Source of the DNA: a virus
Direction: 5' to 3' (one strand)
Length of the DNA: 64,000 nucleotides
IMG/VR virus record: IMGVR_UViG_3300033273_000658
Coordinates: 77,006 to 141,005 of that record
The notes under the pieces were generated by a model. The model did not search any database, was not told the DNA's origin, and saw only the letters and a program-made list of their open reading frames with translations. This document shows positions 5,401-29,213 of this stretch, piece by piece; position 1 is the first letter of the stretch, and every line of letters starts with the position of its first letter. A program made the position numbers and the translations under genes.

Positions 5401-5575
5401 GCTTGTGTATTTTGAAGACCTTGATGGTCAAATTTACCTGTCTGTTATTCTTGCTGATGGGGTTTCTGGATACGGTGGAGATACGAGAATAATTTATGTT
5501 ATCTACTCAATCGCAAATCGATCCACTTGGTTGGCTTATGAGTCTGAGCTGACTCTAGCCAAAAACTTTACATAA
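5381..5575 (+). CDS. Small KOW/SH3-like protein
   Basis: MQFGTGELVYF...YESELTL. Confidence 0.55.
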   Translation: MQFGTGELVYFEDLDGQIYLSVILADGVSGYGGDTRIIYVIYSIANRSTWLAYESELTLAKNFT

Positions 5576-5659
5576 CTTTTTTTATCTAAGTTACATAAAA
5601 TTTTAACAAACTTCATAAAACATGTCAAACTTTTTATGTAACTTTCTTAAAATTGTCTC

Positions 5660-5677
5660 TTGCAAGAATCATGCCAA
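5660..5677 (-). promoter_or_regulatory. sigma54 -24/-12 site
   Basis: Reverse complement TTGGCATGATTCTTGCAA (GG-N10-GC). Confidence 0.8.
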
Positions 5678-5744
5678 AAATGTTTTACATAACTCAGACA
5701 CTGAAATCGTGGCTGCAACTACCTTTAAGGTTGTTTTTGGATCA

Positions 5745-5762
5745 TTGCAAGAACCATGCCAA
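5745..5762 (-). promoter_or_regulatory. sigma54 -24/-12 site
   Basis: Reverse complement TTGGCATGGTTCTTGCAA. Confidence 0.8.
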
Positions 5763-5832
5763 ACTTTTTTTACATAACTTTGAACCATTTTAAGCAAGTT
5801 ACATAAAATTTTAACAAACTTCATAAAATGAC

Positions 5833-5850
5833 TTGCAAGAATCGTGCCAA
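5833..5850 (-). promoter_or_regulatory. sigma54 -24/-12 site
   Basis: Reverse complement TTGGCACGATTCTTGCAA, perfect TGGCACG-N4-TTGCA. Confidence 0.85.
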
Positions 5851-5993
5851 TTTTTATTTACATAACTCAGGCATCGAAAACAGCTCTACGAGCTTCCAAA
5901 GGCCAGATCGCTTAACTTTACTATGAAGTTACATAAAATTTTAACAAACTTCATAAACTTTAACAAACTTCATAAAAAAAGTGAAGAAAAAGT

Positions 5994-6024
5994 TTGACAA
6001 GGTTATTTTGCTGGGTTAATGAAT
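5994..6024 (+). promoter_or_regulatory. First early promoter (imperfect -10)
   Basis: A-rich UP-like tract, TTGACA-N17-TAATGA. Confidence 0.5.
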
Positions 6025-6052
6025 ATTCTGCAACACAAAACATGGAGACAAC

Positions 6053-6211
6053 ATGAAAGTTGGTGACTTGGTAAAGAATAAATACAACAACAAAGTTGGG
6101 ATAATAATCTCACATAGTGGACGGCCACACCGTATACTTGGTGTAATGTACAGTGTGTGGATAGATGGACTTGATGTGCTATTACACGAATCAGACTTGG
6201 AGGTATTATGA
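6053..6211 (+). CDS. KOW/SH3-like micro-protein (not in ORF track)
   Basis: MKVGDLVKNK...DLEVL, GGAG RBS. Confidence 0.75.
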   Translation: MKVGDLVKNKYNNKVGIIISHSGRPHRILGVMYSVWIDGLDVLLHESDLEVL

Positions 6212-6363
6212 TAGGTAGACTTGTGCGTTGCAAATATACAAATGAAATAGGAATAGTGTTGCGTAGGGAAATAACACGCAGAGGAAACTTTCGCTACCAT
6301 GTGTTTATTGGTGGCCATACAGAAAGTTTTCTTCCACATTTCTTGGAGGTGATAGATGAATAA
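6208..6363 (+). CDS. KOW/SH3-like micro-protein
   Basis: MIGRLVRC...FLEVIDE; ATGA overlap. Confidence 0.7.
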   Translation: MIGRLVRCKYTNEIGIVLRREITRRGNFRYHVFIGGHTESFLPHFLEVIDE

Positions 6364-6526
6364 AGGTGACTTGGTACGGATAAGACATAACGAACATCAA
6401 GGGCTATTCATCCTCATGGAAAAATGTTCGGCTGGTAGCCAGTTCGTGAGACTATATTCTTTGAAATACAACCGCGTATGTTTTGATATGATACGCTCAT
6501 TAGAGGTGATAAATGCAGAAAGGTGA
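6356..6526 (+). CDS. KOW/SH3-like micro-protein
   Basis: MNKGDLVRI...LEVINAER. Confidence 0.7.
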   Translation: MNKGDLVRIRHNEHQGLFILMEKCSAGSQFVRLYSLKYNRVCFDMIRSLEVINAER

Positions 6527-6662
6527 TTTAGTTAGATGTATATACACTGATGAACTATTGGTCATAACTTCGGAAGAAGTTGACGGCTATTTTGATGTGT
6601 ATGCAGTTGGAAATGGAAACATGTGGCTTATGCCCAAAGAACATTTAGAGGTGATAAAATGA
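6513..6662 (+). CDS. KOW/SH3-like micro-protein
   Basis: MQKGDLVRC...HLEVIK. Confidence 0.7.
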   Translation: MQKGDLVRCIYTDELLVITSEEVDGYFDVYAVGNGNMWLMPKEHLEVIK

Positions 6663-6844
6663 AAGTAGGTGATTTAAGAGTATTTAAGCCTTGTAGTTTC
6701 TATGCAAACAACATGTTTGTTGTCACACAAGTAGACGATATGGACTGCTCAATAACAATAAGAATAATAAAGACAGGAGAAGTGGAATGTTGGGATCGAA
6801 TAATACTTCTTCACGACAGTAAATCCGTATCGGTCAAAAAATAA
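6659..6844 (+). CDS. KOW/SH3-like micro-protein
   Basis: MKVGDLRVF; GAGGTG RBS. Confidence 0.7.
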   Translation: MKVGDLRVFKPCSFYANNMFVVTQVDDMDCSITIRIIKTGEVECWDRIILLHDSKSVSVKK

Positions 6845-6853
6845 ACTTTTTTC

Positions 6854-6882
6854 TTGACAAAATAATTGCAACACATTAAGCT
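6854..6882 (+). promoter_or_regulatory. Early promoter (repeated family)
   Basis: TTTTTTCTTGACA-N17-TAAGCT. Confidence 0.8.
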
Positions 6883-6911
6883 ATAATTGCCAATCAAAAC
6901 ATGGAGACAAA

Positions 6912-7655
6912 ATGAACATAGAAAAAACAAAAGAGATTCTGCTAGGAAGAATAAACAAACTGACAGAAGAAGAAAGAGAGTGGATGTACGAAAACAATAG
7001 AGCATGGTATAACAAATACCTTTTTGATAGTCCGTACCAAAAAGAAGAATACTCCAACTTACAATGGGAAGCTATGTGGCTATGGTCATCCTTTGGCCAA
7101 GACTACCTTCGCAATAAGTCTTTGGCAAAGAAATTTCTATCTTCGGAGAAGAAGATGAATCAAGTCATGGATATGATGCAAGACCGCAAGAAGTGGTATA
7201 ATACTCGTGTCGATGAAATAAAGCAGCTACATGCGACTGGTAAGCTCACACAAGAGATTATGGCTTTCTTCATAAGCATGTTTCGCAAAGAAAACTTCAA
7301 TGTCTTTGAGAGCTATGTTAAAGACCCAATCTTTGACACTGGTGCAATTGTGCAGTTTCGCTCCAACATTGGTGTAGACGCAGTTCTTCAAGAACATAAG
7401 TATAGTGGTGGCACACAGTATTACGGAGCGAATCATAGTACAATGCGAGAACTTAAGCAAAAGACCATGATGGTGCTGGGTGAAAGTCCACCGTTGGGCG
7501 GCAAGATTTATGCTAGTGCCTATTCTCATAAAGAGAAACAAGGTGGTTCACGCTTGTATCGTGTTCTTCCTATCGGAGACACAAAAGTGTATATTGTTGT
7601 GGAGAAGTTCCTTAAGAAGTGTAGAACAAAGGCAGTGAAAGATGCAAAGAAGTGA
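6912..7655 (+). CDS. Hypothetical protein
   Basis: 247-aa ORF, GGAG RBS. Confidence 0.8.
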   Translation: MNIEKTKEILLGRINKLTEEEREWMYENNRAWYNKYLFDSPYQKEEYSNLQWEAMWLWSSFGQDYLRNKSLAKKFLSSEKKMNQVMDMMQDRKKWYNTRVDEIKQLHATGKLTQEIMAFFISMFRKENFNVFESYVKDPIFDTGAIVQFRSNIGVDAVLQEHKYSGGTQYYGANHSTMRELKQKTMMVLGESPPLGGKIYASAYSHKEKQGGSRLYRVLPIGDTKVYIVVEKFLKKCRTKAVKDAKK

Positions 7656-7836
7656 TTTCAAGAAAGGCGATCTGTTCAGATACAATAAAGGTATGTCTAT
7701 CCATGATGACGTTCATGGGCTTATAGGCATTGTGCTTGCTCCAATCAATCAGTTTGGACAATACAAAGTGCAAGTAGCGCACAAAACATTGTGGGTTCCT
7801 TTTTGTTCCTTGGAGGTGTTAGATGAAGAAAGGTGA
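7642..7836 (+). CDS. KOW/SH3-like micro-protein
   Basis: FKKGDLFRY...GIVL...SLEVL. Confidence 0.7.
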   Translation: MQRSDFKKGDLFRYNKGMSIHDDVHGLIGIVLAPINQFGQYKVQVAHKTLWVPFCSLEVLDEER

Positions 7837-7987
7837 TGTGGTAATACCAGTCAGTAAAGATTTAGATAAGACACCTATGATCTACATGGGAATAGGTTTG
7901 TGGACTGGGTGGATACGCGTGTATTGTCCAGCAGATGGACAGATAATACAGGTTAGAAAAACATTCGTACAAAAGGTGGAAGTATGA
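7823..7987 (+). CDS. KOW/SH3-like micro-protein
   Basis: MKKGDVVIP. Confidence 0.65.
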   Translation: MKKGDVVIPVSKDLDKTPMIYMGIGLWTGWIRVYCPADGQIIQVRKTFVQKVEV

Positions 7988-8151
7988 AAGTAGGTGATCT
8001 GGTACAGATGAAAGACACACGCTACCACAAAGAGATAGGTGTGGTCATAAAAACTTTTTTCCATGGCGATTGGCGAATAGAGGTTCATTGGGCTGATGGT
8101 CGTGTGTTGTGGGAATCAAAGCTGGACTTAATACCTGTTGAAAAAACTTAG
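7984..8151 (+). CDS. KOW/SH3-like micro-protein
   Basis: MKVGDLVQM...IGVVI...VHWADG. Confidence 0.7.
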   Translation: MKVGDLVQMKDTRYHKEIGVVIKTFFHGDWRIEVHWADGRVLWESKLDLIPVEKT

Positions 8152-8160
8152 AATTTTTTC

Positions 8161-8189
8161 TTGACAAGATTTGCTCAATCAGATAAGGT
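8161..8189 (+). promoter_or_regulatory. Early promoter
   Basis: TTGACA-N17-TAAGGT. Confidence 0.8.
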
Positions 8190-8219
8190 ATAAATATAAC
8201 ATCAAAACATGGAGGCAAC

Positions 8220-8573
8220 ATGGCTTACATCAAACCAAAAATGAATGTGTTCTTCGCCAATGGTGGCAAGGCAATAACGGCAGTCATAGACAAGATTGCA
8301 TTTCGCAAGTACATGACAAAACCATACAAAGATCCAAAGACAGGTGAAACCAAACGTAGACAGAAGTCTATGCCGTTCGCAGTGTGTCGTGTGATTCTAT
8401 CTCTTGATCCATCGGTGAATGTGAATGAGACATTCCTTATCGCTGGTTATCAGCTTGAAAATGTAGTTATCAAGAATGAGAAGATGCTCACATTCAAAAG
8501 CGACTACGTTGCAGAGTATGCAAAAGACTATGGTAACGAATGGGTTAGGAGAATAATCAATGAAGATAGGTGA
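8220..8573 (+). CDS. Hypothetical protein
   Basis: ORF with GGAGG RBS. Confidence 0.8.
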   Translation: MAYIKPKMNVFFANGGKAITAVIDKIAFRKYMTKPYKDPKTGETKRRQKSMPFAVCRVILSLDPSVNVNETFLIAGYQLENVVIKNEKMLTFKSDYVAEYAKDYGNEWVRRIINEDR

Positions 8574-8736
8574 TTTAGTAAAATGTATAGAAACAGACTA
8601 CGGAATAGGTATAATCACAATGAAAAGACCTTTTGGTGGTTTTATAGTGTGTTTTCCAAACTCAAAGTTAAAACATAGCGACAAGTGTATTGGTTTATCA
8701 AGAGGAAACTTGGAGGTGATCAATGAAAAAAGGTAG
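8560..8736 (+). CDS. KOW/SH3-like micro-protein
   Basis: MKIGDLVKC...NLEVINEKR. Confidence 0.7.
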   Translation: MKIGDLVKCIETDYGIGIITMKRPFGGFIVCFPNSKLKHSDKCIGLSRGNLEVINEKR

Positions 8737-8890
8737 TTTAGTGAGAATAAAACATTCAGCAGATATGAAACTCATAGGCACATTCGGTATTGTTTTGGGA
8801 GATTTGCAACATGGTCATATCATGATAAAGCGTTTTGTGGATGGTCGTAGAGATACCTATCATCAATCTAGATTGGAGCTGATAGCATGA
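8723..8890 (+). CDS. KOW/SH3-like micro-protein
   Basis: MKKGSLVRI...FGIVL...RLELIA. Confidence 0.7.
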   Translation: MKKGSLVRIKHSADMKLIGTFGIVLGDLQHGHIMIKRFVDGRRDTYHQSRLELIA

Positions 8891-9072
8891 AGATAGGTGA
8901 TTTAGTTAGGGTAAACAGTGTTTTCTCTTGGGAACATCAAAAATACTTAGGCAAGATAGGTGTATTGAGGCGCAAAGCAGTAGGTACGGATAGTGTTTGG
9001 CTTGTGTACATAGATGGAAAAACATTATTATTAAGAGATGATAGATTAGAGGTGATAAATGAAAGTAGGTGA
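8887..9072 (+). CDS. KOW/SH3-like micro-protein
   Basis: MKIGDLVRV...RLEVINESR. Confidence 0.75.
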   Translation: MKIGDLVRVNSVFSWEHQKYLGKIGVLRRKAVGTDSVWLVYIDGKTLLLRDDRLEVINESR

Positions 9073-9283
9073 TTTAGTAAAGGTGTCCAACAAAGGGTTC
9101 ACAGCGATAGGGTTCATCAAAAATATTATGAAAAGCCAGATGGGTGAATTTTTCATGGTACATTACCTTACCACCAATGGAGTCCCAAACTTTCGTGGAT
9201 ACACCAATGGTGGGCTGTGGTCAAAGAAGTATCTGCAATTATTAAAGGAGGTGGAAGATGAAAAAGATATTAGCAAGACATAG
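9059..9283 (+). CDS. KOW/SH3-like micro-protein
   Basis: MKVGDLVKV; resembles 12452-12646. Confidence 0.75.
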   Translation: MKVGDLVKVSNKGFTAIGFIKNIMKSQMGEFFMVHYLTTNGVPNFRGYTNGGLWSKKYLQLLKEVEDEKDISKT

Positions 9284-9446
9284 AGACAAGGAAGTTTTCA
9301 ATAAGATCGGCTTTGGAATAGTCACTGAGGATCTTGACGAGACAAAGTGCAAAGTGAAATGGCTGAAAAGCCAGTATGAAACTCTACAACTGAAAAATTA
9401 CATCTTTTTGCTTGACGAACAGGCAGAGAACGGCTATATTGAATAG
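9258..9446 (+). CDS. Hypothetical protein, paralog of 3548-3760
   Basis: Shared RH...GFGIV.ED...V.W pattern. Confidence 0.65.
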   Translation: MKKILARHRDKEVFNKIGFGIVTEDLDETKCKVKWLKSQYETLQLKNYIFLLDEQAENGYIE

Positions 9447-9463
9447 ACACAACAGGAGACAAC

Positions 9464-9619
9464 ATGTTAGATACAATAGAGAAATGTTATTATGTGAGCA
9501 GTGATAGACTGCATGAGAGTAAACCAATGACTATGTTTCAAGCTTTACGGTTTGCAGATAGTTTAGAGAGACAAGGACACAAGAACGTGTTCTTTTACAA
9601 GGGGCAGTTAGCGATATGA
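9464..9619 (+). CDS. Small hypothetical protein
   Basis: AGGAG RBS; TTGACG-N17-TATATT promoter at 9412. Confidence 0.6.
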   Translation: MLDTIEKCYYVSSDRLHESKPMTMFQALRFADSLERQGHKNVFFYKGQLAI

Positions 9620-9795
9620 AGATAGGTGACTTGGTAAAACTGGAATACAAAGGCGTAGATCTTGATGAGAAAGATAGATTGAAGATTGGTATTGTGGTCA
9701 ACAATACCATCACAACTTTACAACTGGCCAAGGTTCTTTGGAGTAATGGCGATCAAACATGGTGTTTATGCGAGCAGTTAGAGGTGATAGCATGA
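9616..9795 (+). CDS. KOW/SH3-like micro-protein
   Basis: MKIGDLVKL...QLEVIA. Confidence 0.7.
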   Translation: MKIGDLVKLEYKGVDLDEKDRLKIGIVVNNTITTLQLAKVLWSNGDQTWCLCEQLEVIA

Positions 9796-9971
9796 AAATA
9801 AAAGTAGGAAGTTTAGTACAGATACAAAACTTTGCAAAGTACAGTGGAATGATTGGGATTGTCATATACGTTTGTAGACGAGCAGGTTTTGTCGATAGTT
9901 ACGCAGTAAAGATCCCGAACACCACATACGAGTTAGGTGTGGCGAGAGAACAACTCAAGGCGTTAGCATGA
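9792..9971 (+). CDS. KOW/SH3-like micro-protein
   Basis: MKIKVGSLVQI. Confidence 0.7.
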   Translation: MKIKVGSLVQIQNFAKYSGMIGIVIYVCRRAGFVDSYAVKIPNTTYELGVAREQLKALA

Positions 9972-10123
9972 AAGTAGGTGATTTGGTTAAACACATGGGG
10001 CATGGTCGCATTGGTGTTATTCTTAGAGATCTAGTTCCCAATGCTAGGGTTAAAAGGTATCTTGTTCATTGGGGTGACTATCAGTCATCACAAGTAGTAT
10101 GGGCTTTGGAGGTGATAGCATGA
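9968..10123 (+). CDS. KOW/SH3-like micro-protein
   Basis: MKVGDLVKH...ALEVIA. Confidence 0.7.
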   Translation: MKVGDLVKHMGHGRIGVILRDLVPNARVKRYLVHWGDYQSSQVVWALEVIA

Positions 10124-10299
10124 AGAAAGGTGATTTAGTAACGGAGAAGTGGCGCATGTGGCGAAACATAGGTATCGTCAAGAGAGTAGGCAAAGACGGA
10201 TATACAAAGGTTAAATGGATCTTGAAAGCAGATCCAGTAGCTGACGATCAGTTTACCAGTGTGTTCGTTGTAATAGGAGAGATCAATGAAAGTAGGTGA
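10120..10299 (+). CDS. KOW/SH3-like micro-protein
   Basis: MKKGDLVTE. Confidence 0.7.
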   Translation: MKKGDLVTEKWRMWRNIGIVKRVGKDGYTKVKWILKADPVADDQFTSVFVVIGEINESR

Positions 10300-10441
10300 T
10301 TTGGCAGAATATTATTTACGTCCAAAAAGCTGGGGCATTATTGTAGGGATAGATACCTTTGAGTATGAGATGTTTTGGATGGATGGAAGCCGTGGATGGA
10401 TCTCAAAACGATCAATGGTCAAGAAAAGAGGTGATCAATGA
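10286..10441 (+). CDS. KOW/SH3-like micro-protein (duplicate pair, copy A)
   Basis: MKVGDLAEY...WGIIVGIDTFEYEMFWMDG. Confidence 0.75.
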   Translation: MKVGDLAEYYLRPKSWGIIVGIDTFEYEMFWMDGSRGWISKRSMVKKRGDQ

Positions 10442-10584
10442 AAGTAGGTGATTTAGCAGAACACCACATCAACTCTTGGTGTTGGGGTATTATTGTGGCG
10501 ATGGATACCTTTGAGTATGAGGTGTTTTGGATGGACGGAGAACGCTCTTGGGTAAGAAAAGAAATCATGGTCAAAAAATTATAG
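10438..10584 (+). CDS. KOW/SH3-like micro-protein (duplicate pair, copy B)
   Basis: MKVGDLAEH...WGIIVAMDTFEYEVFWMDG. Confidence 0.75.
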   Translation: MKVGDLAEHHINSWCWGIIVAMDTFEYEVFWMDGERSWVRKEIMVKKL

Positions 10585-10592
10585 CTTTTTTC

Positions 10593-10621
10593 TTGACAAA
10601 ATAATTCCAATCCTATAAGGT
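10593..10621 (+). promoter_or_regulatory. Early promoter
   Basis: TTGACA-N17-TAAGGT. Confidence 0.8.
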
Positions 10622-10650
10622 ATAAACATAACATCAAAACAGGAGACGAC

Positions 10651-11571
10651 ATGAAACTAGGTTACGCATGTATCAACAAAGGACTATCTGAACAGTCCAT
10701 CAAAAACCGTATCACAACCAACCGTACATTTCGCAAGGCTACCTTTGAAGAGAAAGGTTTACCTCATGCGTCTGCTATCTTCTTACAGAACAGTAAAGAC
10801 TTGCTTAAGATCCTCCAATGGAACGAGCAACACAACATCAAGTTCTTTCGCTTGTCCTCGCAGATTGTATCGTGGGCTACGGAGTATCAGCTCACTGACT
10901 TGCCAGACTACGATCAGATTGAAGAAGTTCTTTTTGAGTGTGGTCTATTCATCGAAGAGCATGGTATGCGTGTCACATCACATCCCGATCACTTTGTCAA
11001 ACTTGCGTCACCCAATGAGGATGTTGTTCGCAATTCTATTCGTGACTTGGAGATTCATGGTGAGATCTTTGATCTATTGTGCCTACCTCGTACCCACTAT
11101 GCCAAACTGAACATTCATGTTGGCGCGTCCTATGGTGACAAACCCAAGGCTATTGACAACTTTTGTCGTAACGTAGATAGACTATCCGATGCAGTACGCT
11201 CTCGTTTGACCGTAGAGAATGATGATCGTGCCTCCTTGTACTCTACCCTAGACCTCATGGAAGTTTACAAGCGTGTCGGTACTCCCATCGTACATGACCT
11301 ACACCACCATGGGTTCTGCACTGGTGGTCTATCCAACCCCGATGCTCTTACACTTGCAGTGTCTACATGGGGCGATACTACCCCCGTGGTACACTACTCC
11401 CAATCCCGTGCCATAGAACACAATGACACGTCCATCAAGGCACATGCACACTCAGACTCATACTGGACACCAGTGGATACATACGGACATGATGTGGATG
11501 TGATGCTTGAATGCAAGCACAAAGAGCTAGGTTTATTCAAGATGCGAGAACTATTAGGAAAAACTATTTAA
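10651..11571 (+). CDS. uvsE: UV damage endonuclease UvsE/UvdE
   Basis: LGYACIN, FFRLSS, HPDHFVKL, NIHVG, RLTVENDD, DLHHH, VHYS, HSD, DVMLECKHKE. Confidence 0.95.
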   Translation: MKLGYACINKGLSEQSIKNRITTNRTFRKATFEEKGLPHASAIFLQNSKDLLKILQWNEQHNIKFFRLSSQIVSWATEYQLTDLPDYDQIEEVLFECGLFIEEHGMRVTSHPDHFVKLASPNEDVVRNSIRDLEIHGEIFDLLCLPRTHYAKLNIHVGASYGDKPKAIDNFCRNVDRLSDAVRSRLTVENDDRASLYSTLDLMEVYKRVGTPIVHDLHHHGFCTGGLSNPDALTLAVSTWGDTTPVVHYSQSRAIEHNDTSIKAHAHSDSYWTPVDTYGHDVDVMLECKHKELGLFKMRELLGKTI

Positions 11572-11585
11572 CAAAGGAGACAACC

Positions 11586-11834
11586 ATGAAAACAGAAAGA
11601 GAACAAGCAATACAAAACCTTATGAAAATAATGCCTGACCATACTGACAGTGCGTTTATAGTTAAACAAGAGGGTGATGATAGTGGCTCGTACCTATGTG
11701 TGTATGTAGAGCGCACAGAGACAGGTGCAGAGGTATGCAAGACCATCCCAACACCGTTTGAGGGATGGAGAGTGGTGCATGTGTGGTGTCCAGATGGGTT
11801 CATCAAGCACATACTGGAGAGAACGAGAGAATGA
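11586..11834 (+). CDS. Hypothetical protein
   Basis: AGGAG RBS. Confidence 0.7.
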   Translation: MKTEREQAIQNLMKIMPDHTDSAFIVKQEGDDSGSYLCVYVERTETGAEVCKTIPTPFEGWRVVHVWCPDGFIKHILERTRE

Positions 11835-12040
11835 AAATAGGCGATCTTGTTGTGTTATCGGCCAAAGGTGCGAAGTTAAAGCACAACCACAATTATTATC
11901 GTGGCTTTGGAATTATTTTAGAGGTTTACCCAGCGAAAGGATACTATGACTTCGGTATACAGTGGTTTTGCGAGGGTAGATCCACACACAACAAGAGAGT
12001 TTGGTTTAAGAGATACGAGATAAAGAAATTAAAACCTTGA
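11831..12040 (+). CDS. KOW/SH3-like micro-protein
   Basis: MKIGDLVVL...FGIIL. Confidence 0.75.
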   Translation: MKIGDLVVLSAKGAKLKHNHNYYRGFGIILEVYPAKGYYDFGIQWFCEGRSTHNKRVWFKRYEIKKLKP

Positions 12041-12065
12041 TTATGAAAAAACTTCAATTTTTTTC

Positions 12066-12094
12066 TTGACAAAATAATTGTAACCCTATAAGCT
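12066..12094 (+). promoter_or_regulatory. Early promoter
   Basis: TTGACA-N17-TAAGCT. Confidence 0.8.
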
Positions 12095-12124
12095 ATAAAC
12101 ACCACACCGAACAACGGAGAAAAA

Positions 12125-12322
12125 ATGATTGGAAAACTAGTAAAACGAAAAGAAAAAAAACACCACAAGTTTTGGGGAGTAGGTATAGTTTTAGATTACA
12201 GATCCACAGGAAGATTTTACCCCAGTACAGAACTGAAAGTGCATTGGGTTTCCTGTGAAATCGGTTCACAGATTTCTAGCATTGACATTGGGCTTGTGGA
12301 GTTTTTAGATGAAAGCAGGTAG
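12125..12322 (+). CDS. KOW/SH3-like micro-protein
   Basis: MIGKLVKR...VGIVL...KVHW. Confidence 0.7.
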   Translation: MIGKLVKRKEKKHHKFWGVGIVLDYRSTGRFYPSTELKVHWVSCEIGSQISSIDIGLVEFLDESR

Positions 12323-12455
12323 TGTAGTAGAAAATACTTTTGGAGACATTGGTATCGTCATTCGACAGATAGGTGTCGCAGATAGGTGGCTCATTCAATG
12401 GGCTAGTGGAGAAGTTTACGGTATCAATGGATACCAACTAGAGGTGATAGCATGA
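12309..12455 (+). CDS. KOW/SH3-like micro-protein
   Basis: MKAGSVVEN...QLEVIA. Confidence 0.7.
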   Translation: MKAGSVVENTFGDIGIVIRQIGVADRWLIQWASGEVYGINGYQLEVIA

Positions 12456-21194: not shown

Positions 21195-21277
21195 GAAATT
21201 TATTTTCAACTTTTTTCTTGACAACCTTTTCTGAACCCTATAAGAGTATTATACCAACCCAAACCGATGGAGACATC

Positions 21278-21708: not shown

Positions 21709-21896
21709 CGGAGACACACATGAATGAAACAGAAGTATTCCTTGCACTCCTTTTCTTATGGGCAACCTTTCTTCTCTTCTCATTGGGCATTGTACCTACA
21801 TAATCAAAGCCTTATAAAAAAATTCAACTTTTTTTCTTGACAACCTTTTCTGAACCCCTTATATAATAAACACCAACCCAAACTGATGGAGACAAC

Positions 21897-22280
21897 ATGT
21901 CACTCATTCTACAACAAAACAAACAAGAAATCAAAGACTTCTGCCTTGACCGACTTCGTGAGCTATCAATCTACATGGGCAATCAAGACTTCCGAGATGC
22001 TTATGTTTCTGACCTGCATGACGACATCTTTAACCGAGACTATTACATCATTGGTCACTACCAAGCTAAACAATGGATGGGGGATTCTGCTTTCGATATG
22101 ATCGGAGACGTTGTAGAGTATGAGCGAGACAACTTCGGAGAAGTCCATACAGACCTTTCTTCTCCCGAAAGCGTTGTGAACATGTGGGTTTATGTGGAGG
22201 GATGGAACATCATTCATAAGTGTTATGAAGCTGTTGTGATGGAGTTGGGTGATGAGCAATGCCAATTGGATGTGACATAA
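21897..22280 (+). CDS. Acidic early protein, possible Ocr-like DNA mimic
   Basis: DLHDDIFNRDYYIIGHYQAKQWM...EYERDNFGE; has its own early promoter; function is inference. Confidence 0.5.
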   Translation: MSLILQQNKQEIKDFCLDRLRELSIYMGNQDFRDAYVSDLHDDIFNRDYYIIGHYQAKQWMGDSAFDMIGDVVEYERDNFGEVHTDLSSPESVVNMWVYVEGWNIIHKCYEAVVMELGDEQCQLDVT

Positions 22281-22356
22281 AATCTCATCTTTTTTCTTGA
22301 CAAAGTAAACCGAACCCTATAAGAGTATTATACCAACCCAAACCGATGGAGACATC

Positions 22357-22644
22357 ATGAACAACTATCTTGACCTTGCACTACAAGCCTACCGTAACGG
22401 AACCATGGACACCCGATACGAATACTTCGCAGAAGTAGCTACCCTTGCGAAATTGTATAAAGACTTGCATACGCTTTACTTTGAGATTGATGAACTGCAA
22501 GAAGAGAAGAATCCCGATGGTTCCTATGTGGACAACACCGAAGAGCTGGAGCGCATGAGACAAGCGTATCGCAACACCCAAGAAATGCTCCATGCCTATG
22601 AAGAATACGCAATCCCCCTCATCTGCAAGCAGGTGTTGAAATGA
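22357..22644 (+). CDS. Hypothetical acidic protein
   Basis: Follows promoter cassette at 22297. Confidence 0.75.
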   Translation: MNNYLDLALQAYRNGTMDTRYEYFAEVATLAKLYKDLHTLYFEIDELQEEKNPDGSYVDNTEELERMRQAYRNTQEMLHAYEEYAIPLICKQVLK

Positions 22645-22787
22645 GCGACAAAGACTTGAACGCCCTTGCAATAATGATCCTTGTCCTTGCCCTACCTTTT
22701 ATCCTATGCTAACATTCATCATCATCCAACTAACCGTATCAATCACCTACTCATACTTGACCATCTACCTGAACAATCGGAGACCAC

Positions 22788-22976
22788 ATGAAAAATAAAT
22801 CTTTTAATACTCTTGAATCTGCCTATAAGTACTACGATGTTGTATCTCAGAACTATGTAGCTTTCCTTATACTCAATAGAGAAGAAGACAAGTACGAAGT
22901 AATCAATCAAGACTTGTATGACCACTACGCTTTTGAGTTTGATCTTGACATGGTTATCATGGACTTTGTCTGCTAG
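22788..22976 (+). CDS. Hypothetical protein
   Basis: GGAG RBS. Confidence 0.6.
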   Translation: MKNKSFNTLESAYKYYDVVSQNYVAFLILNREEDKYEVINQDLYDHYAFEFDLDMVIMDFVC

Positions 22977-23040
22977 GCTACTCCCCTCTACCGTACTACC
23001 CCCCTACCCTACCCCCCTACCTAACCGACCGGAGATTTAC

Positions 23041-23283
23041 ATGAACACTCAATCCACCCTCACACAAATTATCGATAGAACCCTTGCACTCATTGACAAC
23101 GGACTTGAACGCTCCGTAGGAGACATGCGCCTTATGGACGCTCTTGAGCTTGTGGGTGTCCTCATGGACATACGTGAACGTCAGCTCGTATACGATAATG
23201 AGCGCAGTGTTTCCGAGCCTATTCCATCATGCAGAAAGGCATGTATGAAAAAGCCCAAATGCAAAGGTACAGATGGGCTATAA
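23041..23283 (+). CDS. Hypothetical protein
   Basis: GGAG RBS after a C-rich tract. Confidence 0.6.
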   Translation: MNTQSTLTQIIDRTLALIDNGLERSVGDMRLMDALELVGVLMDIRERQLVYDNERSVSEPIPSCRKACMKKPKCKGTDGL

Positions 23284-23487
23284 AACGGAGGAAATAAACT
23301 TTATGAAAGTATTGTTTTGTGGCGTGTTATGGATGTATTGAAATTTTCCTTTATTGTCGGGAGTATCTGAGCTAAAACAGCTCCTAAGCACACCACCCAC
23401 TACTAAGTAGTACCCCCAAAACTAAAACGCCTTTTTTCCCCGAAACTTTTGAAATAGGGGAATCTTTTTTTTGCCCAAAATCTAATT

Positions 23488-23506
23488 GAAAATGAGAATC
23501 ATTATC
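23488..23506. promoter_or_regulatory. Fur box
   Basis: GAAAATGAGAATCATTATC, 17/19 match to GATAATGATAATCATTATC. Confidence 0.75.
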
Positions 23507-23514
23507 AAAATGCG

Positions 23515-23660
23515 CCTTGCAATTTCCGTGCCAAAACTTCTTTACATAACTCCGAGCCGATTGTCCTTGCAATTTCCGTGCCAAAACTTCTTTACATAAC
23601 TCCGAGATCACCCGAAAATACCCCTTGCAAAAAGCGTGCCAAAAAAATTTCACATAACTC
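23515..23660 (-). repeat. Operator array 3: three sigma54 composite elements
   Basis: Sites at 23517, 23567, 23625; exact 42-bp direct repeat 23515-23556 / 23565-23606. Confidence 0.9.
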
Positions 23661-23729
23661 AAAACAGCTTTCCAGATAGCTGGGATTAAGGTGGCTCCCG
23701 TAGGGAGATAAAAAAAATGAAAAAAAAGT

Positions 23730-23759
23730 TTGACACCAGAAACACCATCGGATAGAAGT
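23730..23759 (+). promoter_or_regulatory. Promoter downstream of array 3
   Basis: A-tract UP element, TTGACA-N17-TAGAAG. Confidence 0.55.
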
Positions 23760-23811
23760 AAGTATCGGCTTTTTTCGATGGTCGAATTTTCACATCCCTT
23801 TCGGAGCTATC

Positions 23812-24111
23812 ATGCCCTACTACGCTTTCTTCCACTGTTCCCACTGCAATTGCCTCCTCCCAGAACATGATCAATCCTTTGGATTCTACCGAGACGATAA
23901 CGACAAAGCAGTTTGTTTACGTTGCTTCAGCTCTCTTGATGGAGAACTACCTGTCGATGTACAACAAGCATTTGAGGCTATCATAGAGCGTATGGATGAG
24001 TATCACGAGACCTTTCGTGGAGCTATGGTTCATGTGTCCTATGAGTATGGTACAAATGAGACGCACCACCAACAGCTTTGGGCTATGTACCGAGATCTAT
24101 ACAAGTCCTAA
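23812..24111 (+). CDS. Small zinc-finger-like protein
   Basis: CSHC...CLRC. Confidence 0.65.
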   Translation: MPYYAFFHCSHCNCLLPEHDQSFGFYRDDNDKAVCLRCFSSLDGELPVDVQQAFEAIIERMDEYHETFRGAMVHVSYEYGTNETHHQQLWAMYRDLYKS

Positions 24112-24340
24112 AAACCGGCCTTTGAAGGCCCTTCCTTTAACATCCAACCCCTAGCGAGATAAACTCATGATGTACAATAATCACTTCAATCCGTTCCCCT
24201 ATCTAATCATTGCAATCTATACCTCCCTAATCTTCATTGGCCTTGCAGGGTTCTATCAGAACATAGCACACCCAAAACCCTTGCCAAAGGTAGAGATTCC
24301 CCACAATGAAGTCGAAATCACATTTATTTCAAAATAATTC

Positions 24341-24369
24341 TTGACACCACCAAAATAACCCAGTATACT
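24341..24369 (+). promoter_or_regulatory. sigma70 promoter
   Basis: TTGACA-N17-TATACT. Confidence 0.8.
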
Positions 24370-24395
24370 GTATAGAGACGATAACGATTGAGATA

Positions 24396-24803
24396 ATGAG
24401 TTTCAAGACTGCTGAATCGATCCGAAGTCTCTCCAACCCCTCCCAAATAGGAAACCCCATGCCACGTTACTTTTCTTGCTCTTGCCACCTCAACACCGAA
24501 ACCACTTGCCGACACGATAGAGATCCTTTCAATGCTCTCCGTATGAGAACCGACTGGACTGTAGCTGACTTCGATGGTCTCAGCTCAAAAGAAGTCCAAG
24601 CTATCAATGAGTCCAATGCACGATACAACCAGCTTGCAGAAGAGATTGAGGAGATGAACATCTCCATAGCTATGCGCCAGATGGACGATGGAACCTACAA
24701 CAAAAAACCACGTAGAACCAAGCGTATCAAACGCGTCTCTCTCTCAGAAGAACAACAAGCCGAGATTATCGCAGATCTCAAAGAGGACGGCTACGAAGTG
24801 TAG
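24396..24803 (+). CDS. Hypothetical protein
   Basis: ORF downstream of promoter; start uncertain. Confidence 0.7.
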   Translation: MSFKTAESIRSLSNPSQIGNPMPRYFSCSCHLNTETTCRHDRDPFNALRMRTDWTVADFDGLSSKEVQAINESNARYNQLAEEIEEMNISIAMRQMDDGTYNKKPRRTKRIKRVSLSEEQQAEIIADLKEDGYEV

Positions 24804-24868
24804 CCAACTCTTCTACCCTACTACATACCACCCTACTACCCTACTACCCCACCCCCAAGGACATACCC

Positions 24869-25258
24869 ATGAGCACATCTAACGCTAACAACGAGACCAC
24901 TATTAACCCCTCTTCTCTTCCAACTGCTGAATACCTCTATGCTCGCAACCCTGCTCTCCGAGACTCCAAAAACACCATCTCATACACGCAGTTCGATAAA
25001 ATCGTGCGCTCAATAGAGCCAAGCGCATACCAGCAATTACGCCTCATAGAGCTATGTGAGATGTACAACGCTCTCACACGTGAGCAACAGGTAGCACAGG
25101 ATGAGCCACACTTAAGCGCAGAAGATGACTTTGCAATCTTTACAGATCAAAACGGGTTTACTATCATTCAGCATGAACCAACCTTTATCAAGTTTAAGCT
25201 TATGGGCTATGAGAGTGTCGAAATGAAACGGCCGAGAAGACTCTCAATCATACTCTAA
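24869..25258 (+). CDS. Hypothetical protein
   Basis: AAGGA RBS after a C-rich tract. Confidence 0.7.
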   Translation: MSTSNANNETTINPSSLPTAEYLYARNPALRDSKNTISYTQFDKIVRSIEPSAYQQLRLIELCEMYNALTREQQVAQDEPHLSAEDDFAIFTDQNGFTIIQHEPTFIKFKLMGYESVEMKRPRRLSIIL

Positions 25259-25289
25259 GTTTTTGGAGTTTGCCAGAAGAACCATTTCA

Positions 25290-25495
25290 TTTTGAGAATG
25301 GTTCTCATTTTTTTAGCTCGGTCATTTTGAGAATCATTCTCAATTTCAGTTTTTGGCATGAGCTTTGCAATATTGCAAGAAGTGTGCCAAACTTTTTTGA
25401 CATAACTCAGACCGTTTTTCTCTTGCAAAAACCGTGCCAAAAAAAATTGTCATAACTCAAATGGCCTAGCTGGCCATTTGAGAATCATTCTCATT
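25290..25495. repeat. Operator array 4: three Fur-type 7-1-7 boxes and three sigma54 sites (one +, two -)
   Basis: TGAGAAT-N-RTTCTCA at 25293, 25328, 25479; sigma54 at 25353(+), 25373(-), 25423(-). Confidence 0.9.
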
Positions 25496-25527
25496 TAGAA
25501 AAAAATGAAAAAAAGTGAAAAAAAAGT

Positions 25528-25556
25528 TTGACATAGCAAAATGAGTCGGGTATTAT
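25528..25556 (+). promoter_or_regulatory. sigma70 promoter downstream of array 4
   Basis: A-tract UP element, TTGACA-N17-TATTAT. Confidence 0.8.
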
Positions 25557-25663
25557 AGAGTATGCCTTTTTTGAGGCTGTCGCTCTTTTACATCCCCAAT
25601 AACAAATCTTCCTCTCCGTGGCTGTTCATGGAGAGAGACAAACTTCTTTATATGGAGCCAACC

Positions 25664-26089
25664 ATGGCAACAATCATTCTCAATTCTCTTAATCTCCTCA
25701 CAAAAATCATCAATCAAGGTGCTTTTGCAACTGACGCTATCGCAGAAGTCCAGAACACCTATGGTCTTGATCAAGAGCAGGTCGATACCGTACTCATGGA
25801 GTACAACATCAATCAGATGCGTTCCCAGCGTTCTCAGCTCACACTGACTGTCTGCTTAAAGAACGCATCCAGCGTAGAGATTCCTCTTACTCAGGCCCAG
25901 TTCGATCTGCTCATGGCGCAGTTCAATACTGGGGATGCAAAGGATCCCTATGGGAATCTCATTGTGAGAAGTGTAGAGATCACTGACAACAAGCGTATCC
26001 GTCAGCATGGTTATGCACCCGATGGAAACACAGGTTACAACTGGGGTTATGCATCCACAGGACGCTTGTCACATCCCAGTGATGAATAA
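25664..26089 (+). CDS. Hypothetical protein
   Basis: GGAG RBS before ATG 25664. Confidence 0.75.
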   Translation: MATIILNSLNLLTKIINQGAFATDAIAEVQNTYGLDQEQVDTVLMEYNINQMRSQRSQLTLTVCLKNASSVEIPLTQAQFDLLMAQFNTGDAKDPYGNLIVRSVEITDNKRIRQHGYAPDGNTGYNWGYASTGRLSHPSDE

Positions 26090-26113
26090 ACATCCACCCA
26101 ATCACCCAAAACA

Positions 26114-26129
26114 GGGGGCGCAAGCCCCC
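26114..26129. other. GC-rich hairpin with GCAA tetraloop
   Basis: GGGGGC-GCAA-GCCCCC; no U-tract on the + strand. Confidence 0.55.
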
Positions 26130-26325
26130 AAGGAGCTTGTATGAGCCGTTTAATGAATCTTGCACACCTTGGAAATCCACTTGTAAAATGCACAAAATGT
26201 GGATTCCAATACCCCAAACTTGGAAAGTGGTCAATTGCCACCCATCAATGTACAGGAAAGAAAAAATGAGACTAGATCACTTCGTCATCAAACCACCCAC
26301 AACCAACCTTTATAGAGGAGCCACC

Positions 26326-26703
26326 ATGGCCATTTCAAACACACCCAAAACCAACACCCAAACCATCACAACAGGAGCCACCATGGCACACTATCCACAA
26401 AACACCCCATCTGTAACCCAGTCACGAGGCTTTGAGTCGTCACACATGACTTGGGTTCGCACACAACAAACTGGATCGGATCTTGTATACGGTCGTATTC
26501 GTGACACCGGAGCCAACTACATTGTAGAGGGTTATCGATCTGGTGTATGGGTTGCGATCCCTTGCAAGAATCTCCCAAGTGCACAGCTTCTTCTTGGTGG
26601 TGTCATGCCAAAGGCAACACACAAACGAGAAAAGGCGCACTATGACTTTCAGAAAGCCCATGTAGAGCTATACGCATGGTGGAAAGACCACAGCATTGTA
26701 TAA
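26326..26703 (+). CDS. Hypothetical protein with two in-frame starts (26326, 26383)
   Basis: AGGAGCCACCATGGC is present before both starts. Confidence 0.65.
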   Translation: MAISNTPKTNTQTITTGATMAHYPQNTPSVTQSRGFESSHMTWVRTQQTGSDLVYGRIRDTGANYIVEGYRSGVWVAIPCKNLPSAQLLLGGVMPKATHKREKAHYDFQKAHVELYAWWKDHSIV

Positions 26704-26778
26704 CTCTTCCAGTGCTCTAGCCGTGGCATAAAACGGCCTACTACCCCACCCCCGTACCCCCACAAACAGGAGACATCC

Positions 26779-27138
26779 ATGTCACACGAGACACCCGAAA
26801 CCAACCCCACAACCCCACAAAACACTACCACCAAGAAAGTTCTTTACATTGCTCATTTATGCCCATACGACATGGCTCAGTATGGATATGGAACCACACA
26901 TCGCTTTTCAGATCGGGAGGAGTTTGAGGCTTTCCGAGCCTCCAAAGGCTCTCGTTGTGATGACTACAGTCGTTGGATCTACCATGTGCGCACCATCTTT
27001 AATCGAATCGAAGAAGGATACGATGTAGACTCGTGGTATTTCGACTATGGTGTCAATAATGACGGTTCAGTTTCAAAAACCCCATACGGACATTGGAACC
27101 AGTACCATGCAGATTTCAAGAGCTTTCCCGAAATCTAG
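26779..27138 (+). CDS. Hypothetical protein
   Basis: AGGAG RBS after a C-rich tract. Confidence 0.7.
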   Translation: MSHETPETNPTTPQNTTTKKVLYIAHLCPYDMAQYGYGTTHRFSDREEFEAFRASKGSRCDDYSRWIYHVRTIFNRIEEGYDVDSWYFDYGVNNDGSVSKTPYGHWNQYHADFKSFPEI

Positions 27139-27139
27139 T

Positions 27140-27460
27140 CACGTCAAGTCTTGACGTAACAACATGAGCCGAAATTTTCGGCTCTTTTTTTTGAGCTTGA
27201 TCATTTTGAGAATCATTCTCAATTTCTGTTTTAACAAATTTCATAAAATTTTATGCAAGTTAGATAAAAATCCTCTTGCAATAACCGTGCCAAACTTTCT
27301 TTACGTAACTCCAAAAATCTTGCATGCAAGAAGTGTGCCAAAAAAACTTTACGTAACTCAAACCGGATAGCTGAAAATCCTCTTGCAAGAAGTGTGCCAA
27401 ACTTTCTTTACGTAACTCAAAACACATAGCTGAGCATTTTTGAAAATCTTCTCATTTAGA
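27140..27460. repeat. Operator array 5: palindrome, Fur-type box, TTTAACAAA-TTCATAAAA motif and three sigma54 composite elements
   Basis: ACGTCAAG-T-CTTGACGT 27141; TGAGAATCATTCTCA 27207; motif 27230; sigma54 (-) at 27276, 27324, 27383. Confidence 0.9.
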
Positions 27461-27499
27461 GCCGGTCAAAAAATGTCCTCAAAAAAAAGAAAAAAAATG

Positions 27500-27527
27500 T
27501 TTGCACATCGAAAAAACATGTTATATT
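27500..27527 (+). promoter_or_regulatory. Extended -10 promoter downstream of array 5
   Basis: A-tract, TTGCAC-like -35, TGTTATATT. Confidence 0.55.
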
Positions 27528-27830
27528 AATTTTGTGGCGAGGTCATAACCTCAAAACTTTTTTCGCTCTTTGTCAGTTCCAATAATAATCCTGTTCTTTT
27601 CGTGGGTGCTAGTGCCACGAATCAAACCATCACAACAGGAGCCACCCATGGCCTTATTAATCTTTCTACTCGTATTCGGTTATGTCGTTTGCGACATTGC
27701 CAAGAACATCAAAAACAATCGCAAATAGGAGATAAACCATGCTTATTATCGCATCTGCATACATTTCACTGATCGGGGGCTTTGGCCTCTACCACTTCCT
27801 CAAACTCATTTTCAATCAATAGGAGACACC

Positions 27831-28073
27831 ATGTCAGAAACTCACGTCCTTTTCAGTTTATTCCTCACCATCTCAGTTATGCTTTCCGGCTTTGTCTGGA
27901 TTGTATGCGAAGAGTCTACACCATCTGAAACAGACGATTGGGAACTTATTCCAATCGCTCAAAAGATGGTCACAATCGGCCAGAAGCTTTCCGGCTTATA
28001 CCTTTCTCTATCGATCCCCATCATGTTTTTTAACATGGTGTACATCATTACATTCTGCACCCACCAACCTTAG
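27831..28073 (+). CDS. Small membrane protein
   Basis: Two hydrophobic segments; AGGAG RBS. Confidence 0.6.
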   Translation: MSETHVLFSLFLTISVMLSGFVWIVCEESTPSETDDWELIPIAQKMVTIGQKLSGLYLSLSIPIMFFNMVYIITFCTHQP

Positions 28074-28082
28074 GAGACAACC

Positions 28083-28442
28083 ATGAACACATTCACAACC
28101 AACCAGCCCACAACAGGAAACAACACCATGAACCAAGACAACACAACCCACGTAGAACACAGCGCCACCAACACTATCCCATCCGTATATGATGATACAA
28201 ACCACAAGTATGACACACTTGAAACCACGCACCTCCCAAACCCCTCGGAATACCGTTCTGAGGTGGCAGTGATGTACGACTTCTTATGTGCTATCTCGGA
28301 TTCGTGGGTACACTGCGCGAATACTCAGTACATCATTGACCATGCTCGTAACGAGCTTGTGCGTGGTGGTCGTACTCCATTCTACCATGAGTGCATTAAG
28401 GAGCTTGTGAAGCTCTACAATGCACCACAAGGGGGTGAGTAA
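28083..28442 (+). CDS. Hypothetical protein
   Basis: AGGAG RBS. Confidence 0.65.
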   Translation: MNTFTTNQPTTGNNTMNQDNTTHVEHSATNTIPSVYDDTNHKYDTLETTHLPNPSEYRSEVAVMYDFLCAISDSWVHCANTQYIIDHARNELVRGGRTPFYHECIKELVKLYNAPQGGE

Positions 28443-28606
28443 TGACGAGTATCATCACCACCACAGGGCTTGCATTGCTTGCCCTTGTGGGCTTTGTGGG
28501 TGAGGTATTCGCCCCATGGAATGACATCCCCCGAAGCCTATCGGCTCGGCTCCTCTTGACGGCTGGCCTGTTTGGGCTGGCCTTGCGCCTGATGGGGTGG
28601 TTCTGA
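28442..28606 (+). CDS. Small two-helix membrane protein
   Basis: MTSIITTTGLALLALVGFVGEVF...; coupled to both neighbours. Confidence 0.5.
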   Translation: MTSIITTTGLALLALVGFVGEVFAPWNDIPRSLSARLLLTAGLFGLALRLMGWF

Positions 28607-28893
28607 TGTTTCTGAGAGTCACCCAAACCCACACCAATCGCCCAAGCACGTGCAACGCACGTGCATGCGATTGCAAGCCCATCCCCTCCGGTACCCCGGT
28701 GGTGTGGACGGTGTCTACCTATCGGGGGCGTACCCTCAGCCGTGTGTGGCACCCTGAGTGCTTTGAGAGAGCCACGGCATACGCTCCCTACTATCATAGA
28801 CTCAAAGCGATTAGGGAGGGTAAAGACATCCTCCCGTTACCATTGTCGGCCTATTGTCCTGAGACGGGAAAGGTAATAGGCTACGAGCGATAG
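28606..28893 (+). CDS. Small zinc-binding protein (PARP-zinc-finger-like pattern)
   Basis: C...C.C..I..G...WHPEC. Confidence 0.5.
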   Translation: MFLRVTQTHTNRPSTCNARACDCKPIPSGTPVVWTVSTYRGRTLSRVWHPECFERATAYAPYYHRLKAIREGKDILPLPLSAYCPETGKVIGYER

Positions 28894-28936
28894 ACCACCA
28901 GCCGATCGAATGATCGGCATTCTCTTTCCCCCACAC

Positions 28937-28961
28937 CATAATGATAATGAGAATCATTATC
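28937..28961. promoter_or_regulatory. Extended Fur box
   Basis: CATAAT followed by GATAATGAGAATCATTATC (18/19 consensus). Confidence 0.85.
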
Positions 28962-28997
28962 AATACCAGCCCGATTGGATGGGGCAAGACTTTCAAG

Positions 28998-29074
28998 TAA
29001 TTGATTTCAATTATGGTATAGCGCAAACCGAAATCAATTATGGTTTTGAAATCGAAATCAATTATGGTTTGCGC
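28998..29074. repeat. Array of TCAATTATGGT repeats with flanking inverted repeat
   Basis: Copies at 29007, 29034, 29058; exact 18-mer CGAAATCAATTATGGTTT at 29029 and 29053; GCGCAAACC...GGTTTGCGC. Confidence 0.8.
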
Positions 29075-29213
29075 AACCCCCTCCTCCTACTTCCCCTTGG
29101 TTGGAGCGTTGCGAAATAAGTACTTGAAAGTCTTGACACGTCAAATCGGCGCAGATACATCCTCGCTACACACAGAAATTTCCCAGATTTGAAAAAAATT
29201 AAAAAACATAAAA

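Follow-up and report, generated by a model that had tools for sequence, protein, structure and literature searches.

Sigma-54-type sites facing away from genes, in part with Fur-type boxes, between early cassettes of a marine phage

Why a viral genome that is otherwise filled with genes should keep six gene-free blocks carrying the same few regulatory motifs is the question raised by the stretch of DNA analyzed here. This stretch, referred to as the window, comprises 64,000 nucleotides (bases 77006-141005) of the 141-kb IMG/VR virus record IMGVR_UViG_3300033273_000658, which has an estimated completeness of 78%, encodes the terminase, portal, major head and sheath proteins of a myovirus together with a DnaE-like polymerase, and has nearly all of its genes on the + strand. 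Open reading frames (ORFs) of that strand cover 95% of the record, which agrees with the dense coding described in the original prediction. There, the blocks were proposed to be a decoy panel for host sigma-54 RNA polymerase and Fur or, as an option, a sensor tying early genes to host nitrogen, iron and phosphorus status. The part of that interpretation which stands is that the sites match the sigma-54 and Fur consensus far beyond chance and are under purifying selection in relatives; a free decoy panel is no longer the main idea. As argued below, the ligand of the repeated units is very probably host sigma-54 polymerase, and that of the accompanying boxes probably a Fur-family protein.

A scan of the window with the strict sigma-54 pattern TGGCAYR-N4-TTGCW returned 13 matches against 0.07 expected from shuffled sequence, exactly the number of -24/-12 sites originally predicted, and the same pattern has zero matches across the rest of the 141-kb record outside five of the blocks. 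All 13 cores (5661, 5746, 5834, 20238, 23518, 23568, 23626, 25354, 25374, 25424, 27277, 27325 and 27384) are intergenic and lie within these five blocks, and they conform to the TGGCAC-N5-TTGC type of core, in which GG and GC are separated by ten bases. All except the + strand core at 25354, hence 12 of them, belong to the minus strand and face away from the genes. In 12 of the 13 sites a partner motif, CRTAACT, lies exactly 10 nt from TGCCAA as read on the + strand; followed along the sigma-54 direction it reads AGTTAYGTAAA, and its position relative to the predicted promoter is about -44 to -34. Five further copies (5568, 5589, 5634, 5797 and 5927) stand free of any sigma-54 core, in keeping with the earlier description of 12 linked and several free TTAYRTAACT sites. 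The forward core at 25354 abuts a backward core (25354-25389), and their -12 elements make a perfect 12-bp palindrome, which we take to resemble, plus one base, a LuxO-type TTGCA-N3-TGCAA site. When the unit is read on the + strand, a promoter for sigma-70, sigma-32, sigma-E or sigma-28 was rejected by eye, the spacing or the -10 element being unsuitable.

The composite unit, that is the core with its partner motif, is present in at least 120 marine metagenome contigs and in those viral contigs that share 77% or more GroEL identity with the window, and no arrays were found in more distant relatives. When block 1 is aligned with nine relatives, the only invariant columns are those at TTGCAA, TGCCAA and the partner CATAACT, and divergence is free in the inner spacer and in the DNA that separates the units. 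The same result is given by a logo made from 48 distinct units, with an identical core, invariant contact bases and partner motif, and drifting spacers; the sigma-54 and partner motifs are kept in relatives in which the spacers are not. Judged from these alignments, the sites are evidently under purifying selection in the relatives. Every contact base matches and drift occurs only where bacterial promoters drift, and it is for this reason that host sigma-54 polymerase is considered the likely ligand. The idea that the composite unit is a host element was rejected, as 185,579 bacterial species genomes hold only 19 scattered single hits, approximately the chance level; for the same reason the sigma-54 core is regarded as host-like and the composite as belonging to the phage clade.

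Matches to the classical Fur 19-mer are found in the same blocks. The box at 28943-28961 matches it at 18 of 19 positions and that at 23488-23506 at 17, two boxes where 0.06 matches with up to three mismatches are expected by chance; the Fur consensus, like that of sigma-54, is therefore matched far beyond chance. Two palindromic Fur-like boxes score 14/19 (25323-25343 and 27202-27222), and their 15-bp palindrome recurs at 25479-25493 below that score. A further claimed site at 25293 is doubtful because it sits inside a terminator-like hairpin (25278-25305), and the "six clear" boxes of the original prediction are accordingly closer to five, two at 17-18/19 and three weaker palindromes.

The geometry of the arrays was compared over 98 distinct arrays, consisting of those in the window, in viral loci and in 80 metagenome loci. 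Arrays hold one to five units at spacings of 48-50, 57-59 or 84-89 bp; units on both strands of one locus never occur, and the partner motif is at one fixed distance from the core in every unit. Of 41 metagenome loci with more than one unit, 37 have their coding strand opposite to the direction of the sigma-54 sites. A forward sigma-70-like promoter, defined by at least 10/12 matches no more than 260 nt to the right of the array, follows 47 of 95 arrays, compared to 3 of 87 in the left-flank control. Fur boxes scored at 15/19 or better within 100 nt are found on the sigma-54 downstream side in 18 of the 98 arrays and on the upstream side in none (0/98). In eight of the 18 cases the box stops 11-12 nt short of the -12 element and would cover about +3 to +21, and some loci have extra boxes at steps of roughly 30 bp. 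The boxes of the metagenome relatives match at 16-18 of 19 positions with differing sequences, and the left flanks of arrays with a Fur box are of several unrelated kinds, indicating that the geometry does not derive from one inherited locus.

On these sequence grounds, boxes held to the downstream side and phased at 11-12 nt have the geometry of predicted operators, as a box just downstream of the start is the classical operator position of Fur-repressed promoters. An operator placed just past a start site suggests, in turn, that transcription really begins there. Zur, PerR or Mur may take the place of Fur at the predicted boxes. Orientation and partner distance are fixed, the Fur boxes are phased and confined to one side, and the arrays are coupled to forward promoters; taken together, this points to a cis-regulatory module rather than a sponge.

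The features of the window are the following, from left to right.
5560-5999: block 1, between the GroEL/protease operon and a microgene array, with three sigma-54 units that face backward, along with free partner sites, an 18-mer repeat in four copies and a forward TTGACA at 5994-5999
5600-5628, minus strand: leftward sigma-70-like promoter of block 1, 11/12 matches plus TG
5661-5693, minus strand: sigma-54 unit 1, with the -24/-12 core at 5661-5676 and the partner motif at 5687-5693
5746-5778, minus strand: sigma-54 unit 2
5834-5866, minus strand: sigma-54 unit 3
20238-20271, minus strand: block 2, one sigma-54 unit, then a conserved hairpin, a forward TTGACA at 20326-20331 and a gene start at 20387
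23488-23506: Fur-type box of block 3, 17/19, separated by 11 nt from the first unit and so lying over about +3 to +21 relative to the leftward sigma-54 start that is predicted there
23518-23661, minus strand: block 3, three tandem sigma-54 units (cores at 23518, 23568 and 23626), with a forward TTGACA at 23730-23735
25278-25305, + strand: terminator-like hairpin of the upstream cassette, containing the doubtful Fur-like site at 25293
25323-25343: palindromic Fur-like box, 14/19, left of the block 4 array
25354-25369, + strand: the only forward sigma-54 core, without partner motif, face to face with the unit at 25374
25374-25459, minus strand: block 4, two backward sigma-54 units (cores at 25374 and 25424)
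25479-25556, + strand: right part of block 4, with a Fur-like palindrome (25479-25493), an A-rich tract and a sigma-70-like promoter (25528-25556, 11/12)
27166-27247: left part of block 5, with a bidirectional-looking terminator (27166-27184), a Fur-like palindrome (27202-27222) and a copy of the 18-mer (27230-27247)
27277-27418, minus strand: block 5, three backward sigma-54 units (cores at 27277, 27325 and 27384), with a forward promoter at 27500-27527
28943-28961: block 6, the best Fur-type box, 18/19, overlapping a leftward sigma-70-like match (28963-28935); no sigma-54 site in this block
29007-29068, + strand: block 6, three copies of an 11-mer repeat, with a forward TTGACA at 29133-29138

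A + strand sigma-70-like promoter follows all six blocks, that of block 2 having a weak -10 element; the original count of five of six was too low. The repeat counts were correct, as the window holds five copies of the 18-mer TTTAACAAAYTTCATAAA and three of the 11-mer TCAATTATGGT. In reverse, the 18-mer supplies a TGnTAnnnT extended -10 that is kept in relatives along with the leftward promoter of block 1, and leftward sigma-70-like matches also overlap the Fur-type boxes at 23488 and 28943. Consensus sites of the PhoB, DnaA, CRP, LexA and NtrC types were not found in the blocks, and IHF has one consensus match there with no enrichment. Of the options in the original prediction, the sensor comes closest to the interpretation favored below.

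Several of the blocks have features of their own. To the left of the block 3 Fur-type box (23284-23480) lie a 12-codon mini-ORF with a Shine-Dalgarno sequence and then a noncoding element of about 70 nt that is conserved in at least seven other contigs, for which no convincing RNA structure was found on either strand; it is to exactly this element that the predicted leftward transcript of block 3 would be antisense. An extra sigma-54 core without partner motif is seen inside the element in a related contig (L007:15404-15419) and also in L280, and the window has no core at the matching position. In block 5 a palindrome, CGGACA-A5/6-TGTCC, lies at 27466-27482 just upstream of the forward early promoter, as it does in relatives (L007:17500-17540; L161:18761-18836 and 20929-21004), including relatives without sigma-54 arrays, and is probably a separate operator. 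In block 6 (28990-29075) the first 11-mer is inside an inverted repeat and the other two are enclosed by a 9-bp inverted repeat, at the edge of a GC-rich island and at a local minimum of cumulative GC skew; these repeats could be an operator or iterons.

The blocks also lie where genes are exchanged. Comparing the window with L007, the adjoining DUF2201 VWA-domain protein is 98% identical and the shared DNA 70-88% identical, and genes between blocks have been reordered, gained or lost; about 3 kb of the window has no L007 counterpart, and a single L007 array matches three window arrays. A described parallel is the promoter-early stem-loop (PeSL) cassettes of T4-type phages, which border cassettes exchanged between relatives (Arbiol et al. 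2010, PMC2839356). Both systems are repeated intergenic combinations of a stem-loop terminator, an AT-rich tract and a strong sigma-70 early promoter, and both are found in a hyperplastic region of small genes of unknown function, bordering cassettes that are shuffled between close relatives. The described PeSLs, which also form mini-circles, have no sigma-54 cores, partner motif, Fur boxes or backward-pointing parts, and the present phage is not T4-type, as seen from its DnaE-like polymerase and a large terminase only 33% identical to that of T4-like cyanophages.

The interpretation favored here, a possible one that is held tentatively, is that Fur-gated, backward-firing sigma-54 promoters are built into boundary modules between the early accessory cassettes. 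The sequence match, conservation, orientation, phasing and shuffling are observed; which proteins bind, and that transcription starts there, we infer. Read from left to right on the gene strand, such a module would begin with the terminator of the preceding cassette, followed in a subset only by one to three Fur-family boxes, then by one to five backward units, each made up of a consensus host sigma-54 -24/-12 site and the clade-specific AGTTAYGTAAA at about -44 to -34, and would end in an A-rich tract and a forward sigma-70 early promoter. The units would be occupied by host sigma-54 RNA polymerase; with an active host activator ATPase, working either enhancer-free or with the help of a protein bound to the partner site, the polymerase would fire leftward into the 3' end of the preceding cassette, with transcription that is convergent or antisense as the result. 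Such firing would be blocked by iron-loaded Fur bound over about +3 to +21, and the module would thereby tie cassette expression to host iron and to stress or nitrogen status and insulate neighboring cassettes. Precedents are available for the separate steps: sigma-54 promoters can be activated by a bacterial enhancer-binding protein (bEBP) domain in solution (PMC3844500), Borrelia has a sigma-54 promoter on which a protein of the Fur family acts directly (PMC3037356), and host-regulator sites are carried by marine phages (PMC3037559, PMC9437464). Leftward firing is further supported by the conserved leftward sigma-70-like promoter of block 1 and the extended -10 matches, which point in the same direction as the units.

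A number of results weigh against this interpretation. Genes for a bEBP, RpoN or Fur, or any GAFTGA loop, were not found in the 141-kb record, and no bEBP was found in four relatives and one complete distant genome; across the phage and these five related records PF00158 gave no hit at the curated cut-off. Nor do the blocks contain an NtrC-type enhancer, with the IHF consensus matched only once; a host activator that uses another kind of site may nevertheless act on them. The minus strand downstream of the units is without a gene, the conserved ORFs there, to the left, being on the + strand, and no conserved minus-strand RNA structure was found: neither the predicted leftward RNA nor its complement has a convincing conserved structure, and no Rfam family was detected at 5-30 kb of the window. 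Tandem units would transcribe through each other, and the 25354/25374 pair face each other; a strong Fur box accompanies only about one fifth of the arrays. Most E. coli sigma-54 sites are, moreover, transcriptionally silent (PMC4591121). The presence of rpoN and fur in the host is, in addition, an assumption. Among candidates that were considered for missing parts, a weak PF00158 hit proved to be a MoxR/CobS-like AAA protein that lacks the GAFTGA loop and occurs also in relatives without arrays. Minus-strand ORFs near the blocks, such as 28396-28797, have no family hit and are probably spurious, and a LexA-domain protein (14820-15329) was rejected as the binder of the partner motif because its gene is unmatched in L007, which does carry arrays.

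The main rival of backward firing is occupancy without firing, in which stable sigma-54 closed complexes and Fur form a barrier or insulator at cassette boundaries; such a barrier might act by halting read-through or by giving the local DNA a shape that suits the forward promoter. This is rather unlikely, despite fitting much of what has just been listed: an activator gene and an enhancer were not found in the record or the blocks, the minus strand shows no product, the sites sit between a terminator and the next promoter, and the sigma-54 holoenzyme is inactive at most E. coli sites that it binds (PMC4591121). A simple barrier nevertheless leaves Fur boxes on the downstream side only, at a fixed 11-12 nt, unexplained, as well as the accompanying leftward sigma-70-like promoters, and intragenic sigma-54 binding in E. 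coli is reported to have left the expression of overlapping genes unchanged (PMC4591121). The remaining readings rank lower. That a phage-encoded protein rather than sigma-54 reads the unit, the likeness being coincidence or mimicry, would account for two hexamers one helical turn apart, as in sites of tandem-binding regulators, for partner motifs that occur without sigma-54 cores, for more distant relatives that have no arrays, and for a composite unit confined to the clade and at chance level (19 hits) in the 185,579 bacterial species genomes. It is nonetheless quite unlikely, as all strongly conserved sigma-54 positions are matched at the right spacing, the variable positions behave as in bacterial promoters, and such a match is very unlikely to arise by chance.

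The decoy of the original prediction, in which arrays titrate sigma-54 polymerase and Fur during replication and so damp sigma-54 regulons and derepress iron uptake, draws on the large number of near-perfect sites that a genome holds (13 for sigma-54, about 5 for Fur) and on a target gene not being visible; multicopy Fur boxes do titrate Fur, as in the Fur titration assay (FURTA). It is improbable all the same, and the original prediction is not upheld on this point: a sponge would need neither strict orientation nor a fixed partner motif, Fur boxes on one side and in one phase, or coupling to forward promoters; most arrays in relatives have only one to three units and no strong Fur box; and the number of sites varies between close relatives without obvious compensation. 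It is equally hard to credit that the repeats are mainly substrates for recombination, shuffling cassettes in the manner of PeSLs with their motif content secondary. Cassettes are indeed reordered, gained and lost between the window and L007, one L007 array matches three window arrays, and PeSLs act likewise (PMC2839356), but recombination needs overall identity, not sigma-54 contact bases kept amid drifting spacers, and leaves the phased Fur boxes unexplained; it is also compatible with backward firing and does not exclude it. Least probable is that the blocks are replication origins at which promoter transcripts prime synthesis, in the way known from T4 and T7. An origin would be suited by the tandem promoters, the iteron-like repeats and the AT-rich DNA of the blocks, and by a cumulative GC skew minimum near 29 kb; five or six blocks inside 24 kb with no DnaA box would not fit, and the skew follows the GC-rich island (14-29 kb) instead of marking a switch across the genome.

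Comparison with known systems shows which parts are familiar. The units share with bacterial sigma-54 promoters such as glnAp2 and pspA the exact -24/-12 elements, the GG-N10-GC spacing and the pattern at variable positions, and differ in being tandem, with no enhancer, activator gene or downstream gene and no more than a single IHF match. E. coli and Salmonella have sigma-54 sites within genes and antisense to them, which are often silent and for which action through antisense RNA or interference has been proposed (PMC4591121, PMC3844500). There too, sites point away from or against genes, but they are scattered, of mixed quality and mostly intragenic, while those of the phage are consensus-grade, intergenic, arrayed and phased. 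In Borrelia the Fur-family protein BosR has its site directly at the sigma-54 promoter of rpoS, which is the arrangement predicted here; BosR, however, activates and binds a non-Fur direct repeat (PMC3037356), whereas the phage boxes are of the classical Fur type. NtcA and Pho boxes in cyanophages (PMC3037559, PMC10976474) and CtrA sites in alphaproteobacterial phages (PMC9437464) likewise wire lytic phage genes to a host regulator of nutrient or cell state through many consensus sites, although those sites precede the genes that they drive and the sigma-54 sites of the present phage face backward.

The oop promoter of lambda is a backward promoter just past the end of a gene, producing a short RNA antisense to the 3' end of that gene, as do similar promoters of other phage genes; it differs in giving a single sigma-70 transcript with a defined terminator, and no such product is visible in the present phage. 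To our knowledge phages do not build on sigma-54, and a literature search for phage sigma-54 arrays found no description of them. What is already known is that marine phages carry host-regulator sites, that PeSL modules exist and that a Fur-family protein can act at a sigma-54 promoter. The combination that would be new, a marine clade with enhancer-less backward sigma-54 promoters, a clade-specific factor at about -40, Fur gating and antisense or convergent control of mobile cassettes, is distinctly unlikely to hold in every part.

A search of GenBank found no near-identical phage and no close relative of the phage that carries the arrays. Its large terminase is 43-45% identical to those of the nearest cultured phages, Flavobacterium phage immuto (45%, nearest) and a Microcystis phage, and its GroEL homologue is likewise 43-45% identical to those of the nearest cultured phages. 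Marine viral contigs in the hundreds share its genes, and among them are complete genomes of 183-196 kb. A one-piece transfer-messenger RNA (tmRNA) is encoded at L170:8498-8883 (genome 65498-65883), with a tag ending in YFEVAQAA, and those of relatives (L106:13491-13829, L161:14379-14717 and L012:64-402) have tags ending in FFEEVALAA; the tag may be a clue to the host. A host search with the phage tmRNA in 5 genomes and then in 300 of one class gave matches of only 26-29 nt. Shine-Dalgarno-like motifs precede approximately 75% of ORFs, which weakly disfavors a host among the Bacteroidota.

Around the blocks, 6053-12995 of the window holds a long + strand series of small, close-set genes with products beginning MKVGDLV, a family that recurs in distant relatives. 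The G+C content of 14000-29000 is 0.40-0.52, compared to 0.31-0.37 further on, and its GC skew is negative despite an unchanged gene strand; four of the five sigma-54 blocks fall within this stretch, which may be a separately acquired or fast-evolving accessory island. The MoxR/CobS-like AAA ATPase and, next to it, the DUF2201 VWA-domain protein are encoded at 15922-19059 within this stretch, and relatives of the DUF2201 protein are found at 167 viral sites.

Sigma-54 is the only bacterial sigma factor that binds promoters silently and requires an ATPase to fire. In the phage clade described here, represented by at least 120 marine metagenome contigs, the borders of the mobile early cassettes retain consensus sigma-54 sites together with phased Fur boxes and a partner motif peculiar to the clade. 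Should the sites only be bound, they would offer a natural way to learn the role of silent sigma-54 complexes, and if a factor at about -40 replaced the usual ATPase activator, this would be a new route to sigma-54 activation. If the sites are switches, they would be compact, portable regulatory parts, and infection by abundant ocean phages would be tuned to host iron and to nitrogen or stress through a type of module that has not been recognized.

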